A stretch of DNA of 64,000 nucleotides from Octopus vulgaris. Its lineage: Eukaryota. A model generated the notes under the pieces. It was not told the origin of the DNA, did no database searches, and saw only the letters and a list, made by a program, of their open reading frames with translations. The stretch lies in NCBI GenBank assembly GCA_951406725.2, contig OX597822.1, positions 96,100,001 through 96,164,000 on the forward strand. Direction: 5' to 3'. Shown one piece after another: positions 34,885 through 61,571 of the stretch (the stretch's first letter is position 1; each line of letters begins with the position of its first letter). A program made the translations under genes and the position numbers.

Positions 34885-36885
34885 CTTATGAAAAATATAT
34901 TTGGGTGATCTTTACTTCAGGGGCAACTTTGACTCATCTCTCGTTAGCTTTTACAATATTTCCACTACCTATCGAGAAAAGAGAATGGGATATCTCATGA
35001 TGATTATTTGTAGAAAAGTATTTTGAATAAGGAAGGGTGAAAACTGAAGTCCTTGGTTATGAACGGGCCATTTTATCGTCAACAAGGGTACACATTCTCA
35101 GATTTCCTTTATGACATAAAAATAATCAACAGCGAATCTCCAAAAAAAATATTATTTGAGAGCTAACTAAATAAGAATTTGCACATGCACAAAAGGTCGT
35201 AAACACTTGGCATGTCTATTTTTACATGCCAAAAAATTGTCATATTTTACGGCAGGATTTGAACATAGAAGGCAGACGCTTAAAAGAAATACTTCAAGAC
35301 ATACATCTTAATAGTTCTGTCACTCAACAGACCACAGTAGAATTTTGGATGCAATATCGATTGGGATTAGGAACAGAATGCTTTTCATATTTCTCTATTA
35401 TACTGAAGACAGTCATAAATATTTACCACTTTTCATTTCATTCATTTGGAAGCTTCATTCATATGGAAAAAATCTTTATTTCATTTTTCATTCCAAGAAC
35501 TATTGTCTTATTCTATCTGGAAGCGAAACCCGTCATTCAAAAATTTATTGCAAAAGACGATGGAATCAGGAAGACTTGCGTTTAAATCAAGAATATGATA
35601 AAATTACGACAGAAAATACTTCTCCGAAGAAGGAAAAACAGCTTTGCTTTTATATTTGGGCAACGAATTTATTTTGTTATGGATATAATGAAAAAAGCAA
35701 AAATGCAATTACAAACTGACTATGCAAAACGTACGATCAGAAGAGTTGGAAAATAATCATCATAAAATAGTTTCGTACTTTGACACAGGGCCAGCAGATT
35801 TTGAGGGAAGGGGGAAATCGATTCCGTCGACCCTAGTATTTGACTGGTACTTATTTCATCGGCACCGAAAGCATGAAAGCCAAGTCGACCTCGACGGAAT
35901 TTGAGTTTAGAACGTAAAGACGGACAAAATGCTGTTGCAATTTTTTCCAGGTGTGCTAACTCATTTCTAATTTGGTTACAAGGCCAGCAATGTTGAAAGG
36001 AGGGGATTATGCGATTACATCGCCCAACCCCCGCCATAATACTTGGCCTATACTTTCAGGCGGACGAGGGGTAAAGGAAATCGCGACAGAGCATGAACTC
36101 AGAAATTTTTTTAAATATTGCATGACGTTTTCTTTGACAATAAAAGAATTCTTCCAATCCAATGCGTAAATAATAACATACATATGTGTATGCATACATG
36201 TACGTTTGCATGTATATATGTATATATATACATGCAGCTATTTAGGTATGCAAGTGTGTGTGTGTGTGTGGAAGAAACACAGAAGACGTGGTGTTGACGA
36301 AGTGTGTGGAATACATTGAGTTGTGTAGCAGGGCCTATCGGCTTATGTAATAACAAAAGTTATCTAACCCAATGCTGCCCAAAGTGGTGGTCAGCGGACT
36401 GATGCAGGTCCGCGAGCCATCAGCTGCTAGTACGCGGCGAGTTTCCAGGAAAGTAAGAACCATTATTAAATGCTTATAAAATGCTTATGTGATATTGTAT
36501 TATTTGGCTACAAAAGAGATTTTAAAAATCGTCAACTTTTATTATATTAATTATATATATATTATTTCTGCTATAAATTAAGATTACTAAGAAACATTAC
36601 CGGTTCAGTTACTTCGGTCAATTCAGGGTCAACAGCCATATAAATCGAAGTTAAACTACGTCAGACTTAGGGCGGAGGTTTAGAACTTACTAACCTTACT
36701 AAAAACATTTGGTAACATGTCACACCTTCCAGTGCACATTTCAAATTACATGTGAGTGTCTATGAATATTTGTATGTATAAACATGTGCGCTGATGTATG
36801 TGTGTGTCTTGTGCGAAGAATATATTCGATTAAGTGGCGAGAAAGAACAATAAAGAAGAAAGAAATTTTGTAGAAACGTTTCTTT

Positions 36886-37317
36886 TTCTCCTGGGGCTAC
36901 AAGCTACAGTAACACCCACCCTTAGTGGTTAGCCATATTGAGATGGCAAGTATACCTCACATTGTCGTGCAGTTACTGTTTATACCTCGTTCAGAGATTT
37001 ATTATTGCTTGCATACAGTTTTTCGAGATCAGTGACGAAAAGTTACTGGAAAAACGATAACAGTATTTGCATTGGGACATCCCTTCATCGAAAACCGGTG
37101 GTTGTCGTACGCCGACGACAGGTCAATACCTAGAAACTGCAGTCCGTGCGTATCACTTAGGTTGACGAGGGAGGGATGACCTCCCTTTGCAAATACCATA
37201 AGGGCACAGATAGTGTGCCTAAAGCCAGCTGGAGACGATGTTCTCCTGGGGCTACAAGCTACGGTAACACCCACCCTTAGTGGTTAGCCATATTGAGATG
37301 GCAAGTATACCTCACAT
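36886..37317 (+). mobile_element. Unclassified structured element with 77-bp terminal direct repeats and a 9-bp TSD
   Basis: Direct repeats at 36886-36962 and 37241-37317 (1 mismatch). CGTTTCTTT flanks both ends (36877-36885, 37318-37326). The element is absent from the paralogous site at ~20200-20250. No TG...CA ends, no poly(A). Confidence 0.75.
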
Positions 37318-37859
37318 CGTTTCTTTTATATTTCCTTTTCTAATCACATTGAATTGAGGTCTTTTTTCTTAAAACGTTTCTTCCTCATGAAGGTTATCCG
37401 AGTTTTCAGTGTCATCAAGGGTAATTAAAGGAGAGTCCTCGCGATTGCTGCTCGTACGATCCGAACAAGCGTTTGATGGGTCGCAATTCAAGTTAGAATC
37501 GCCATCTAGTGGTGGGTAGTGTTCGTTTGACTCAGTAATTTCTGGAAGTATCAGTGGTTTGTAAATCGCTTCCTGTACTGTTTCTTTGCTTTCGTTCGTC
37601 GAAGAACAAACGTCAGCAGAAAGGTCTTCAATCTCCTCTAAGTTTTTATTATTAATGGCGTCGAGTGAAGAAGGTGTGAAAGAACAAGTTGGAGTGGGTA
37701 AATCTGACTCGGAAATGCTCTGTATTTCAGGTGCGACACGTTCGTTGATTCAGCAGTTGCAGCTTTAATGGTTTCTGCTACTTCTGCTGATGCCACCTTT
37801 GCTGCTGCTGCTGCTGTTTCAGCTGACGCTACTGATGCTGTCGCCGTGACAGCATCCTC

Positions 37860-38364
37860 CTCCTCCTCCTCCTCCCTCCTCCTCCTTCTTTTTCTTCTTC
37901 TTCTTACAATCAGGACTCACGCCATTAGCCACAAACAATAATCTCTAATTCGAGCCTACCCTAATCTACTAAGAATGAATGTGGCAACTTGAAGATCCAC
38001 CCCACCACTTGAAGATCCACTGGCAGTTGCACGGGCGCGAAAGCTACGTTGTTATCATCATTCAGTAAACGGTGGCTTTTAACGGGTGGAGAGGATTCAC
38101 AATCTAGACTAGGGTCTGAAAGTCTACCACACCATAATGGGTTACACCATAGTTCCTCTCCTTTGAGTCAGAAACAGGAAGAAAGAGTGAAAGAAAGTTG
38201 TGGTGAAAGAGTACAGCGGGAATTGCCACCCTCCCCCCGCCGGGGCCTTATGGAGCTTAGGTGTTTTTGCTCAATAAACGCTCATAATGCCCGGTCTGGG
38301 AATCGAAACCGCGTTCTTACGACCGCGAGTCCGCTGCCCTAACCACTGGGTCATTGCGCCTCCA
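37860..38364 (-). mobile_element. SINE family A variant inserted in the SDR pseudo-exon
   Basis: Family A head at 38364, a distinct tail and a (GAA)n(GGA)n end. Confidence 0.7.
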
Positions 38365-38703
38365 CACTGCTGTGGCTGCTGCTTCTACCAATGATTCTTC
38401 TTCTACTACTTTTGTTGGTAATGATGATTCACTTGGAGCTTTAGATGTATGCCAACAACTATTTTCTGAATCTGTTTTCGTTTCAGTTTTGGACGACGAA
38501 AATCCCTTATCGGCATCTTCTTTCTTTTGTACATTGTCTTTCTGCAAAGCTCCCATATCTATCTTCGCTACATCTTCAGGTAAATCTAAATAATCTTTGG
38601 AAACTAAGAAACTAATTTCCCGCATTTTCTCACTTACTCTTTGTCAAGAGCTAAATTAAACAAACTTTTTGTTTGTATGCTAACGTTTTCGAAATAATCT
38701 CGT

Positions 38704-38820
38704 TTAACCCTAACCCTAAGATAGATTGAAATGCAATAGATCGATACTAGGTTCATAAATATGGGTGACAATTTCATATGACACCGCTAGAAAAAACTGC
38801 CGTTCAAACCGAAAAGATCC
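38704..38820 (-). mobile_element. Truncated MITE end (family of 4746-5173) inside the SDR pseudo-exon
   Basis: (TAACCC)2 through one TIR ...GAAAAGATCC. Confidence 0.8.
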
Positions 38821-39291
38821 GAATAACGAGACTTAAATATAAGAAATTCACAACCAAGTATAACATCAGCTGCCCAAACAGATATCAGTATGGTTTCGAC
38901 ACCTGGGAAGTACCACTCAATCCGGCAGTGTCCACCGCGTTAGAAATATAAACACGACTTGGGAATCCTCCAGCTTTTTACCACAAGAAACAATTTAAGA
39001 TTAAATAAATAGACAAACTTTTTGTTAGTATGCTAACGTTTTCGAAATACTCTCCAGTTACTTCGGCCAATTCGGGTTCGATAGCCATATAAACCAAAGT
39101 TTTTTCTGCATCTTCTGGTGAACGACCTAACCAAACAGACAGACGACGGATTATAATGTTGACATTACGCTTAACTGGATTCTTCACATTTATGTTATTT
39201 ACGTTTGTTCCTGTAAGACCCGGATGCATGACGTTGATGGTGACTTTCGTCTCAGTAAGTTCTTGACTGAGGAATCGACTATGGTAGATAT

Positions 39292-39524
39292 AAGGCGGCG
39301 AGCTGGCAGAAACGTTAGCACGCCGGGAGAAATGCGTAGCCGTATTTCGTCTGGCGTTACGTTCTGGGTTCAAATTTCGCCGAGGTCGACTTTGCCTTTC
39401 ATCCTTTCGGGGTCGATTAAATAAGTACCAGTTACGCACTGGGGTCGATATAATCGATTTAATCCGTTTATCTGTCCTTGTTTGTCCCCTCTGTGTTTAG
39501 CCCCTTGTGGGTAGTAAAGAAATA
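39292..39524 (+). mobile_element. SINE family C inserted in the SDR pseudo-exon
   Basis: 12-bp TSD TATGGTAGATAT (39280-39291 and 39525-39536). Confidence 0.9.
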
Positions 39525-39829
39525 TATGGTAGATATTTGCTAATTTACTCACGACGTAACCCTCAAGTTTGCTGTATTTTACATTTGAGCCTTCTCCGTG
39601 AAGGGTGAAATCCAGCGGACCGCGAACTAATTCATGCAACTTAGAACTAACATTTATAATGCAACTAGGAGCAGATATTTTCATAAGATCGAGCAATAAA
39701 TGAGTTAGAATGAAATGGTCGAAGTGGTTAGTTGCGAAAGTCAAGTTGAAACCTTGGTTTGGAACATTTCCTATCAGTGAATCCAATTCCTGCAACATCA
39801 AGCTTGAGAAATATTTAAAAAAGAAAAAT

Positions 39830-40058
39830 TCCAAAAACAGCCATGGGCTGGATGCCGCAGGAAGGTAAAGGGGTGGGAAAGAGTCTGGCCAAGGAAGACA
39901 TAGCGTAGTACCTTCAAAAAAGACCTACACAGACTGAACATCACCTGGGAAGAAGCATACCGGTAGGCCAGTGACGGAGATAATTGTCGATTACTGATTG
40001 CCCGATGTGCCGTTCAAAGGTACCAACGGACCTAAGAAGAAGAAGAAGAAGAAGAAGA
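39830..40058 (+). mobile_element. RTE-type LINE 3' end with (GAA)n tail
   Basis: Remnant of W.P..GK..R..PRKT...DL....TWEEA...A.D, then a stop and (AAG)n. Confidence 0.6.
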
Positions 40059-51652: not shown

Positions 51653-52085
51653 TGGAGGCGCAATGGCCCAATGGTCAGGGCAGCGGACTCGCGGTCGGAG
51701 GATCGCGGTTTCGATTCCCAGACCGGGCGTTGTGTGTGTTTATTGAGCGAAAACACCTAAAGCTCCACGAGGCTCCGGCTGGGGGTGGGGTGGCGACTCC
51801 TGTTGTACTCTTTCGCCCCAACTTTCTCTCACTCTTTCTTCCTGTTTCTTGTCCCCAACTTCCTACGCAACCGCTGAGCCTGGATGCACATTCATCCATC
51901 CGTCGATGCTCTCGGTGTCGGGGGTTGACCTGCTTTCTCTTCTGCGGGTCTTACGAATAGCAAAGGACCACGTTTCGGACTTCTCCCATCTTGCGAGCTC
52001 TGGGACGAAGACCGTTCGCTCAACAGCACAGCAGCATGTACAGTACAACAGCATTCACACATCACACCAGTGGGAGGAACCCACT
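51653..52085 (+). mobile_element. SINE family A variant with another distinct tail
   Basis: Head and body as in family A to ~51850, then an unrelated GC-richer tail; 3' boundary approximate. Confidence 0.7.
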
Positions 52086-52089
52086 TTAC

Positions 52090-52830
52090 AGCAATATTTA
52101 TGCTTTTGTTATTTATAAAGCACTTGCAAAAACCCGTGTTATCTGTACTCTCATTGTTGTTCACGTTTAGCAACAAACTGTTGACAGATCCAGTCTCGCT
52201 TGGAGATACATTTATGTTGTCCACACCGCGATCGTTTCTAGATCGGCAAAATCTTGCAAAATGCTCTAACTTGCCACACTTATAACAATTTTTCCCATAT
52301 GCTGGACATGCATAAATTTTGTGTGTACACCCACAATTTCGACATTTCGCTACAACGTCACGACTGCTCTTGGGGCATTCTTGTTGACCATTAATGTTTG
52401 TTATGGTTTGTCGACCACTCGCAAACAGCGTTTCCGATTCTATGGTGGATGCGAGATCAGCTATTTCAGTGCGATGTCATTTGAGAATGACATCGCAACT
52501 GATCCACATTTTAAAACTTTACTTCTGCCGACGATAATTCCGCGATGAAAATGAGTTTCACGATTTCTTCTTCTGAATTTTCTTCCAACCTATTCAAATG
52601 GTAGAAGGAAGCTTGGGAATAAATCCTAAGAAGAAATTCGTTGATTGTCTCATTTTCTAGTTGCTTCAGTACCAAATAATTTTAAACTGTTCGCAGTTAA
52701 CAGTCTCTCCTTCGGCTTTACTAGTTCTTGCTGCGCATTCGTTATTTGTTGGTATGTTGCATACTGAAGGCTTACCGGAAAAAGAACTTCTTTTAATTTC
52801 ATTATGCCTTTAACTCCACAGGTAGAAAGA
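52090..52830 (-). mobile_element. Gypsy (Mag-like) LTR retrotransposon gag remnant
   Basis: Minus translation CRNCGCTHKIYACPAYGKNCYKCGKLEHFARFCR (two CCHC knuckles) at ~52240-52345; outer limits approximate. Confidence 0.65.
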
Positions 52831-55041: not shown

Positions 55042-55640
55042 TATTTCTTTATTACCCACAAGGGGCTAAACACAGAGGGGACAAACAAGGACAGACATAG
55101 GTATTAAGTCGATTACATCGACCCCAGTGCGTAACTGGTACTTAATTAATCGACCCCGAAAGGATGAAAGGCAAAGTCGACCTCGGCGGAATTTGAACTC
55201 AGAACGTAGCGGTAGACGAAATACCTATTTCTTTACTACCCACAAGGAGCAAAACACAGAGGGGACAAACAAGGACAGACATAGGCATTAAGTCGATTAC
55301 ATCGACCCCAGTGCGTAACTGGTACTTAATTTATCGACCCCGAAAGGATGAAAGGCAAAGTCGACCTCGGCGGAATTTGAACTCACAACGTAACGCAGAC
55401 GAAATACTTATTTCTTTATTACCCACAAGGAGCTAAACATAGAGGGGACAAACAAGGACATACATAGGTATTAAGTCGATTACATCGACCCCAGTGCGTA
55501 ACTGGTACTTAATTTATCGACCCCGAAAGGATGAAAGGCAAAGTCGACCTCGGCGGAATTTGAACTCAGAACGTAGCGGCAGACGAAATACCGCTCAGCA
55601 TTTCGCCCGGCGCGCTAACGTTTCTGCCAGCTCGCCGCCA
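55042..55640 (-). mobile_element. SINE family C trimer within a single TSD
   Basis: Junctions at 55225 and 55408; TGGTTAACMCCAATACC flanks both ends. Confidence 0.85.
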
Positions 55641-55730
55641 ATATTGGTTAACCCCAATACCGATTCTCTACTCCCATGAAACGTTATGCAAAGAAGGACA
55701 TTCGCGATGAATATGCGTCTCACACCTGTC

Positions 55731-56353
55731 TTATATTACTTGATGTACAAGGTAGACGTTTAAACTCTAGTCAGCAATATGTTGAATGATTTTGCCTTGA
55801 CAAAGTGAGAAAATGGCTACGATATTAAAAGTCAGTGTTTCCATGACCCTGGAGACTAGGCCTAGTTTGTGCGACATCCCTTCTTGGTAATAATTCATCT
55901 ATACTAATTCTTGAACCAGATTTTCCTTTTAACTGTATTATATTACTTGATGTACAAGGTAGACGTTTAAACTCTAGTCAGCAAATATGTTGAATGATTT
56001 TGTCTTCACAGAGTGAGAAAATGGCTACGATATTAAAAGTCAGTGTTTCCATGACCCTGGAGACTAGGCCTAGTTTGTGCGACATCCCTTCTTGGTAATA
56101 ATTCATGTATACTAATTCTTGAACCAGATTTTCCTTTTAACTGTATTATATTACTTTATGTACAAGGTAGACGTTTAAACTCTAGTCAGCAAATATGTTG
56201 AATGATTTTGTCTTCACAGAGTGAGAAAATGGCTACGATATTAAAAGTCAGTGTTTCCATGACCCTGGAGACTAGGCCTAGTTTGTGCGACATCCCTTCT
56301 TGGTAATAATTCATGTATACTAATTCTTGAACCAGATTTTCCTTTTAACTGTA
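55731..56353. repeat. Tandem triplication of a 207-208 bp unit
   Basis: Units start at 55731, 55938 and 56146 and differ by only a few substitutions. Confidence 0.9.
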
Positions 56354-56643
56354 TAAACCAGTATCAAAATAGAATATTTTCCTCTGACTTAGAACATAAA
56401 GGAAACTTGTCACCTGTCATGTTCGAACAAATACTCTTTTCTAGAAAAACTAATTATTCAGGAATAGCATTTGTATTCTTATACAGACATCGTTATAGTG
56501 GAGGAACTACGTTTGACAATGAGTCAGTTCTGTAAGTATCTCATTTCATTTACACCTGATGCTCATTCTATCGTTTTCTTTTGCTGAACTGCAGTGTTAC
56601 GGGGACGTAAACCAACCAACGCCGATTATCAAACGGTGTTGGA

Positions 56644-59527: not shown

Positions 59528-59925
59528 TCTTTATATATATAAAAGAGAAGTTGTGTGTCTGTCTCCTACGATTTAGATTCCTAACTACTCCCACATTTTG
59601 CGGTGCAGTTTAACCAAAACCGGGTATCTTATAGCCGTGATTCATATCGAGCCCTTCTGGGTATTAGCGCGCGTCTACGATGAGTCTACGATTTTAAAAA
59701 AAATTTACCATCAATTTTTCCCATTTTTAATGCATTTTTGGCATATATAAGGGAAGTAACTCTCTAAAAATTTATTATTAAATCTCAGAACGTAAAAAGT
59801 TACAGTAACACCCCCCCTCCTTTGTGGTTAGCCATGTTGAGATGGCTATTATACTTTACATCTCTAAAAATGCTTATATAGTTATTTCCCTTACAAACCC
59901 GAGCAACGCCGGGCGATACTGCTAG
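59528..59925 (+). mobile_element. Non-autonomous Helitron sharing its 3' end with 1852-2236
   Basis: A|TCTTTATATATAT start, CCCGAGCAACGCCGGG hairpin, CTAG|T end. Confidence 0.8.
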
Positions 59926-59941
59926 TATTAAATATTAGGAT

Positions 59942-60918: not shown

Positions 60919-61571
60919 GCAACTGGTACTTAATGAAAGGCAAAGTCTACCTCGGCGGAATTTGAACTCGGAAAGTAAAAACAGACGAAATACCTATTTC
61001 CATTTCTTTACTACCCACAAGGGGCTAAACACAGAAGGGACAAACAAGGACAGACAAACGGATTAAGTCGATTATATCGACCCCAGTGCGTAACAGGTAC
61101 TTATTTAATCGATCCCGAAAGGATGAAAGGCAAAGTCGACCTCGGCGGAATTTGAACTCGGAACGAAACGGCAGACGAAATACCTATTTCTTTACTACCC
61201 ACAAGGGGCTAAACACAGAAGGGACAAACAAGGACAGACAAACGGATTAAGTCGATTATATCGACCCCAGTGCGTAACAGGTACTTATTTAATCGATCCC
61301 GAAAGGATGAAAGGCAAAGTCGACCTCGGCGGAATTTGAACTCGGAACGAAACGGCAGACGAAATACCTATTTCTTTACTACCCACAAGGGGCTAAACAC
61401 AGAAGGGACAAACAAGGACAGGCAAACGGATTAAGTCGATTATATCGACCCCAGAGCGTAACAGGTACTTATTTAATCGATCCCGAAAGGATGAACGGCA
61501 AAGTCGACCTCGGCGGAATTTGAACTCGGAACGTACCGGCAGACGAAATACGACTACGCATTTCGCCCGGA
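60919..61571 (-). mobile_element. SINE family C multimer; inverted counterpart of 59942-60255
   Basis: 184-bp period (junctions 61184 and 61368). It shares a private deletion and a CCATTT insertion with 60165-60255. Confidence 0.85.

Follow-up and report, generated by a model that had tools for sequence, protein, structure and literature searches.

Penelope-like elements (PLEs) leave partial tandems, an inverted truncated 5′ copy and a tail of 30-40 bp at either end (PMC8557442), and their target site duplications (TSDs) measure 8, 9 or 10 bp, with the tail on an inverted pseudo-long terminal repeat (pLTR) that suffices for mobilisation in trans (PMC3846280). The PLE enzyme cuts AT-rich DNA and extends both strands, hammerhead cleavage is dispensable in vitro, and two internal start sites, one of them lying inside a stem-loop that is AC-rich, define the tail (PMC11167929); a matching layout is also described in PMC8969392. 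Non-autonomous families without a hammerhead, such as MRC1, have been described, and Naiads and most Chlamys elements are likewise without canonical hammerheads (PMC8557442). Penelope is among the abundant repeats of cephalopods in a survey that set unknown repeats aside (PMC8967140). Here we analysed a 64,000-nucleotide stretch of the Octopus vulgaris genome (contig OX597822.1, positions 96,100,001 to 96,164,000; hereafter the window, in whose own coordinates all positions are given) that carries at 36877-37326 an insertion of a 355-nt unit, for which a prediction from the sequence alone had proposed a retrozyme-like or circular-RNA retroposon. The element is a real and very abundant octopus retroposon, and we consider it probable that it is of the PLE type, is non-autonomous, lacks a type I hammerhead and depends on the enzyme of an octopus PLE to be copied in trans.

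The insertion takes the form of a pseudo-LTR-like partial tandem, as in PLEs. The segment 36886-36962 (+ strand) recurs as 37241-37317 with 76 of 77 bases equal and one mismatch, at a period of 355; the 77-bp terminal redundancy originally described therefore holds, and the upstream segment is a 5′-truncated, pseudo-LTR-like copy of the last 77 nt of the full unit at 36963-37317 (+; 355 nt, 46% GC). The sequence CGTTTCTTT borders the insertion on each side (36877-36885 on the left and 37318-37326 on the right, + strand), and since the next T, at 36886 on the left, is common to both flanks, the TSD measures 9 or 10 bp; exact 9-mer matches between flanks arose in 0 of 20,000 random draws of position pairs, and the predicted 9-bp duplication is borne out. 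We take 441 bp to be the insertion because a paralogous region at 20072-20224 shows a gap of 151 bp, against 153 bp left at the locus once the 441 bp are removed; the paralog, at 20.0-20.3 kb, has diverged too far there to display a single target copy. No coding sign was seen in the unit, whose one 84-residue frame had no Pfam match, and ARAGORN found 0 tRNAs, a head outside the truncated copy being conceivable; both results agree with the prediction that neither a protein nor a tRNA head would be recognisable. The insertion carries no poly(A) or simple-repeat tail, and no dimers or longer arrays of the unit were seen.

The family extends well beyond this locus. At least half of the sampled words of the unit are present in 20 sequencing runs from 10 studies under 4 organism labels. 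Contigs of four runs, one per organism label (X1, X6 and X8, which are DNA or unlabelled, and X18, guessed to be RNA), were aligned at 80% likeness to a reference that joined the left flank to a single unit (36641-37240), and 6123, 3191, 2458 and 110 contigs were aligned across the four. In X1 the summed depth, which is no copy number, was 42-83 over the flank 36641-36740 and reached between 4e4 and 2.3e6 across the unit, and a depth so far above that of the flank marks a very abundant repeat. The X1 depth has its minimum at 37061-37080 (4.0e4), rises round the unit to about 2e6 at 36901-36940, and beyond this peak stays at 4.6e5-7.8e5 up to 37000 before falling to 1.2e5 by 37021; the profiles of X6 and X8 are shaped alike, with the minimum at 37061-37120. 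Copies thus thin towards the 5′ side, with frequent 5′ truncation as in PLEs, and both copies in the window are truncated.

Two end points of the family emerged from these alignments, among 24 loose-end rows, 32 pieces and 15 joints listed (691 further loose ends and 12,065 further pieces exist). Loose ends behind 36962 comprised 25 contigs in X1, 26 in X6 and 19 in X8 (agreement 0.49-0.53) and one, at 36961, in X18, and those behind 37010 comprised 43 contigs in X1 (agreement 0.51) and three, at 37009/37010, in X18; 14 of the 32 listed pieces terminate at 37003-37011, some merely because the contig ends there. The end points, 36962 and approximately 37010, lie 48 nt apart, the published PLE tail being 30-40 bp, and we refer to the stretch between them (36963-37010, +) as the tail. 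Strand is switched in 6 of the 15 listed joints. The more-than-unit layout recurs beyond the locus, because diverged contigs cross from the end domain into the body (X1 records 3 and 6, X6 records 22-24, X8 record 29 and X18 record 12). Among the 24 listed loose-end rows no shared head or common internal region was found. Two apparent signals were set aside: a joint from 37240 to 36886, tried as a tandem junction, is internal to the unit and was produced by the choice of reference, and the coverage of the unit without its flank in X18, tried as evidence of RNA, would equally be given by high-copy DNA. Loose ends before 36969 (4 contigs in X6 and 6 in X8) share the sequence from 36969 onwards and differ upstream, which suggests either a related family whose domain around the end has a different interior or one amplified truncated copy. 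X6 record 17 (36641-36915), from another organism label and at single-copy depth, contains the flank and 30 letters of the element with 7 differences; it gives a hint that the insertion is common to another organism label, the contig being one letter short of the bridging rule.

The diverged piece that the original prediction had noted at about 59800-59861 has a different standing. Its direct part, 59797-59861 (+), is 83% identical to 36901-36962 and stops at the first end, so that the claim of a common terminus stands; the passenger to which it belongs (59772-59861) sits, however, within a non-autonomous Helitron at 59528-59925 (+), which has the end motifs 5′ TC and a 3′ hairpin with CTAG and is inserted between an A and a T. 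The target TCTCTAAAAAT occurs once, at 1905-1915, in a sister Helitron at 1852-2236 (-) that so displays the empty site, and 59861-59926 is 95% identical to this sister over 66 bp. Because the sister has a single target, the piece at 59.8 kb counts as a genuine insertion, whose TSD measures 10-11 bp (59761-59771 on the left and 59861-59871 on the right, +). The two insertions thus have TSDs of 9-10 and 10-11 bp, to be set beside the 8-10 bp and AT-rich targets of PLEs, and the AT content of their flanks is 0.70, 0.74, 0.72 and 0.52. The left 21 nt of the passenger (59772-59792, -) correspond to the tail end (36988-37008) in reverse complement, with 15 of 17 positions matching at 36988-37004, a score reached by 1 of 400 shuffles; this inverted piece derives from downstream of the end of the direct piece and corresponds to the inverted truncated 5′ copy of PLEs. 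In each of the four runs the loose end usually seen ahead of 36901 consists of the passenger's upstream letters, and the piece represents one old insertion later spread by the Helitron. The two Helitrons are alike at their ends and differ in their interiors, and the first has amplified the 90-bp family piece.

These features bear on two accounts in which no PLE takes part. The absence of TG...CA ends, as originally stated, is correct for the insertion and incorrect for the unit, which at 36963-37316 begins with TGT and ends with ACA. As 355 bp is also a typical size for a long terminal repeat (LTR), the unit might be an LTR, or be like a terminal-repeat retrotransposon in miniature, and the insertion an aberrant copy of a tandem-LTR junction. 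An element of that kind would be bounded by TG...CA with a 4-6 bp TSD, whereas both insertions begin within the unit and carry TSDs of 9-11 bp; the 5′ depth gradient, the inverted piece and the lack of a common internal region among the listed loose ends speak against it as well, and we regard this account as very improbable. A second account sees a short interspersed nuclear element (SINE)-like retroposon with a head and a tandem body, mobilised by a long interspersed nuclear element (LINE), in which 5′ truncation has removed the head and the fixed end is the one recognised by the LINE. Target-primed insertion of any kind could leave TSDs of 9-11 bp and a truncated 5′ side, a local tRNA-headed SINE forms arrays of a head and three 184-bp bodies, and a GCCAT/ATGGC hairpin near the end resembles LINE-tail hairpins. 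RTE and CR1 LINEs are, moreover, abundant in octopus (PMC8967140). The local SINE shares with our unit its host genome and head-to-tail internal tandems, but it has a tRNA-like head, which the unit does not, and a single end. The lack of a poly(A) or simple-repeat tail, of a tRNA and of a common head among the listed loose-end rows counts against a SINE-like origin, and a second end lying downstream, together with an inversion derived from downstream, misfits L1-type twin priming, in which the inverted part comes from upstream. This account we hold to be unlikely.

The PLE-type reading is favoured because the partial tandem, the apparent optional tail, the inverted piece, the AT-rich targets and the 8-10 bp TSDs match the published PLE signature. 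Under this reading transcripts would span more than a single unit, and this RNA would be copied by the reverse transcriptase (RT)/GIY-YIG endonuclease of an octopus PLE, which would nick AT-rich DNA. Reverse transcription would start within the RNA, at the AC-rich loop 36956-36963 or 48 nt further on, and copying would pass one unit into the preceding one and stop early, giving the 1.2-mer, while the inverted piece would arise where the opposite strand was primed at the second site. The RNA fold may serve protein recognition and RNA stability, and a step of self-cleavage would be unneeded. In this scheme we infer the enzyme, the RNA template and internal initiation. The original prediction had tied the fixed end to an unrecognised ribozyme or a circle, and this part of it was not supported: a fixed end needs no cleavage, because the PLE enzyme starts reverse transcription inside the RNA, and two ends 48 nt apart with an inverted copy of the second end match PLEs. 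Its core idea of a non-autonomous, structured, more-than-unit retroposon with a fixed end and TSDs was upheld, and the element is close in kind to retrozymes. A Penelope untranslated region, which the prediction had named as a finding that would speak against it, is matched here in structure and not by sequence.

The described families differ in how closely they approach the unit. Canonical PLEs with an endonuclease, Poseidon of Anolis and Adineta Pen (PMC11167929, PMC3846280), share with it what appear to be tail-separated ends, a first end in an AC-rich loop, a tail-bearing inverted piece, TSDs of 8-10 bp and AT-rich targets; unlike them, the octopus unit has no open reading frame and no hammerhead, and its tail is 48 nt and not 30-40. 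MRC1 and non-autonomous Chlamys elements (PMC8557442) resemble it in the lack of coding sign and of a canonical hammerhead, in a pseudo-LTR or partial tandem, in high copy number and in 5′ truncation. In contrast to them, the octopus unit resides in an animal, is strongly folded throughout, is dispersed in AT-rich targets with clear TSDs and not in microsatellites, and has no demonstrated 3′ similarity to an autonomous family. The octopus elements Naiad_Ovul, Naiad_Obim and Naiad_Omin (PMC8557442, supplement) share the host genus and are PLEs without a canonical hammerhead, but their ends, compared by eye, are unrelated to those of the unit bar one 12-mer, and they have (TA)n targets and are described as long inactive, whereas the repeats of our insertion differ at 1 of 77 positions. 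Metazoan non-LTR retrozymes (PMC7229834; bioRxiv 10.64898/2026.07.22.740005) resemble it in size (170-400 nt), GC content below 50%, tandems, TSDs above 4 bp and a probable dependence on PLEs; unlike these, the unit shows no type I hammerhead on the one strand or the other and was seen here only as a 1.2-mer. A description of the 355-nt family was not found in the literature, and Repbase or Dfam may list it as unclassified.

Several observations weigh against the PLE-type reading. No RT or GIY-YIG domain was found in the 54 frames scanned among the window's 233 long frames, and when three octopus Naiad consensus ends were compared by eye and the supplement that holds them was searched for five motifs, one 12-mer was all that matched the unit; these Naiads are described as favouring (TA)n and as having long been inactive (PMC8557442). 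The tail, at 48 nt, exceeds the published 30-40. Tandem layout alone is not diagnostic, because the tRNA-headed SINE in the window, with its head and three 184-bp repeats, forms tandems too. Copies of the single Helitron passenger make up part of the loose ends at 36962, since the X6 consensus matches its flank, and no more than three distinct flanks were directly seen for this end. For the inverted piece the evidence is a 17-nt match in a single insertion. The second end might instead be that of a sister family with the domain around the junction alone in common; pieces ending near 37010 diverge by approximately 15-20% from the locus copy, and, as noted, some of the 14 pieces stop where the contig stops.

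To retrozymes proper, which are defined by a type I hammerhead (PMC7229834; bioRxiv 10.64898/2026.07.22.740005), the unit does not belong, because Rfam and the core scan revealed no such hammerhead in it, although it may work much like a retrozyme. The Rfam search called for by the original prediction returned 0 families at gathering score over the window and, for 36800-37400 up to E 10, five weak matches (E 0.18-10; snoRNA, sRNA, miRNA and leader) with no ribozyme among them. Hammerhead cores in type I/III order were sought on both strands, a single mismatch being tolerated, and gave 0 matches, the hammerhead motifs coming from PMC8557442 and PMC3088659. Of the other ribozymes, twister, HDV-like, pistol, hairpin and twister-sister cores were not found, nor did they match in Rfam. 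Pieces of twister at 37220 and 36896 lie in the wrong order without an enclosing helix, and of the hairpin ribozyme one half of loop B is present; twister, hairpin, pistol, HDV, H/ACA and telomerase-template likenesses were weighed and rejected. Pattern scans of metagenomes (0 and then 7 loci) and viral contigs (9) gave 16 matches, none of which aligns past the pattern (best 27 nt), as expected of chance.

When the unit was scanned as a circle, one arrangement in type II order was found at 37090-37168 (+), with GAAA at 37090-37093, UH at 37127-37128 and a core half with C3U at 37162-37168; with this defective match as the sole hit, the earlier statement that no hammerhead, HDV-like or twister consensus could be found stands. 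A strict retrozyme whose hammerhead was lost or altered could be built on it, in which multimers would be cut after 37128 and ligated to 355-nt circles, and a PLE copying such a circle would run round it to give the 1.2-mer. Its size and GC content lie within the retrozyme range of 170-400 nt and below 50% GC (PMC7229834), folding of the whole unit as a circle gives z -5.8, and the match has the correct G10.1-C11.1 pair and a 5-bp stem I, with the change G37170A expected to strengthen stem II; 3 of 1500 shuffles did as well under a criterion (core exact or C3U) picked after the hit had been seen. Under the prior criterion, however, 64 of 1500 shuffles equalled it; its order is type II, its C3U comes without G8A, its stems have 5, 2 and 1 contiguous pairs (the single pair being stem III), and the arrangement lies approximately 23 kcal/mol above the minimum fold. 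Position 37164 (G5) is T in 22-56% of the depth, while a partner change at 37124 preserves the competing helix, and the motif is 189 nt from the fixed end. PLE hammerheads are of type I, with U3-A8 as a known core variant (PMC4209133), and animal retrozymes have type I hammerheads (PMC7229834; bioRxiv 10.64898/2026.07.22.740005). The arrangement appears to be a relic or a chance match, and a strict retrozyme seems to us distinctly unlikely.

The predicted fold of the + strand monomer is compact and branched, and it is deep (z -5.9, 0 of 100 shuffles equal) compared with that of the - strand (z -3.3), and circular folding is near identical (z -5.8 and -3.1, respectively, with 60 shuffles). Strand asymmetry and depth of fold suggest that the + strand RNA is structured. 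The predicted minimum structure contains four of the nine helices originally listed, GTATTTGCA/TGCAAATAC, GGCACA/TGTGCC, GGAGA/TCTCC and GCCAT/ATGGC, with mean pair probabilities of 0.95-1.0; the other five, TGTCGT/ACGACA, GTCAA..CCTA/TAGGTTGAC, AGGGAGG/CCTCCCT, TTTTCG/CGAAAA and GGCTA/TAGCC, are unused there and occur as alternatives, forcing the GTCAA..CCTA/TAGGTTGAC helix costing approximately 8 kcal/mol. Most of the folding signal resides in a predicted rod-like long domain at 37063-37196 (+). Covariation support for the fold is weak. Among the matches listed, 40 variant rows, less 6 in the flank, left 34 (59 further variants exist), and when these were pooled two predicted pairs were altered on both sides (37018/37055 and 37083/37173), a third double change at 37124/37164 belonging to an alternative helix; random placement gave at least two double changes in 1419 of 20,000 trials. 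Nineteen of the 34 variants fall at unpaired positions (p 0.026), or 15 of 29 (p 0.09) once the zone common to the Helitron passenger is left out, and 12 of the 15 at paired positions break the pair when taken alone, 3 of these having a listed partner change. At 37060, 37061 and 37101 the locus copy disagrees with 85-100% of the aligned DNA depth and so cannot be the sequence from which the family arose; with the letter usual at 37101, a predicted G-U pair becomes A-U.

Both ends fall in a junction domain at 36900-37011 (+), a predicted four-way junction closed by 36906-36913/36972-36979, the first (36962) in its predicted AC-rich loop 36956-36963 and the second (~37010) at the predicted helix 36900-36904/37007-37011; loop-loop pairing of 36939-36942 with 36956-36959 is possible. 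This domain might itself be an unrecognised self-cleaving or processing RNA, cut between 36962 and 36963 to give a 355-nt circle. Its closing helix (pair probability 0.94) encloses a compact multi-branch domain with the end in a loop, no other part of the family is shared as widely as this domain, and both frequent changes in the CUCA loop (C to T at 36956 and 36958) keep the pairing with the UGAG loop as G-U. Yet the second end lies 48 nt away, internal initiation gives fixed ends without cleavage (PMC11167929), the local fold is modest (z -1.0 and -2.1, with -2.1 also for the - strand of the longer stretch), and a frequent change at 36973 breaks a pair of the closing helix, barring an unseen partner change. 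We give this proposal very little credence. The broader idea that the unit is an abundant octopus circular RNA with a selected fold, cut and closed by a novel motif (the four-way junction at 36962 with its loop-loop pairing) or by a type II variant and borne by a PLE, appears improbable.

Several further features were noted in the window. An intact 490-residue frame of a short-chain dehydrogenase (retinol-dehydrogenase-like) with a long low-complexity tail lies at 20262-21731 (-) and matches a protein labelled Octopus vulgaris with 100% identity across 93% of the frame; a duplicate at 37372-39924 (-) is broken by several repeat insertions, and the 355-nt element lies approximately 50-490 bp downstream of the end of this broken copy, on the opposite strand. 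The tRNA-headed SINE occurs at 55042-55639 (-), 60933-61570 (-) and 17493-18091 as a head and three bodies of approximately 184 bp, and also as single copies; the tandem repeat restarts within the head, which carries A/B-box-like motifs. A 208-bp unit is repeated three times at 55726-56354 with 98% identity, and a frame at 51895-52476 (-) has a weak zinc-knuckle match (E 3e-4, below the cut-off), perhaps a retroelement remnant. A scan for bacterial promoters and terminators, not relevant to octopus, gave 0.

How PLEs choose their RNA and where they start to copy it is only partly known, and the role of the hammerhead is open (PMC8557442, PMC11167929). Were a circle or a new cleavage motif to prove true, the unit would represent a new ribozyme context in animals. 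If the PLE-type reading is true, a short, very abundant, non-coding passenger that has PLE ends but no type I hammerhead would offer a minimal natural substrate, whose many copies would reveal where copying starts and which RNA fold the PLE enzyme needs, and a large "unknown" octopus repeat would be reclassified.

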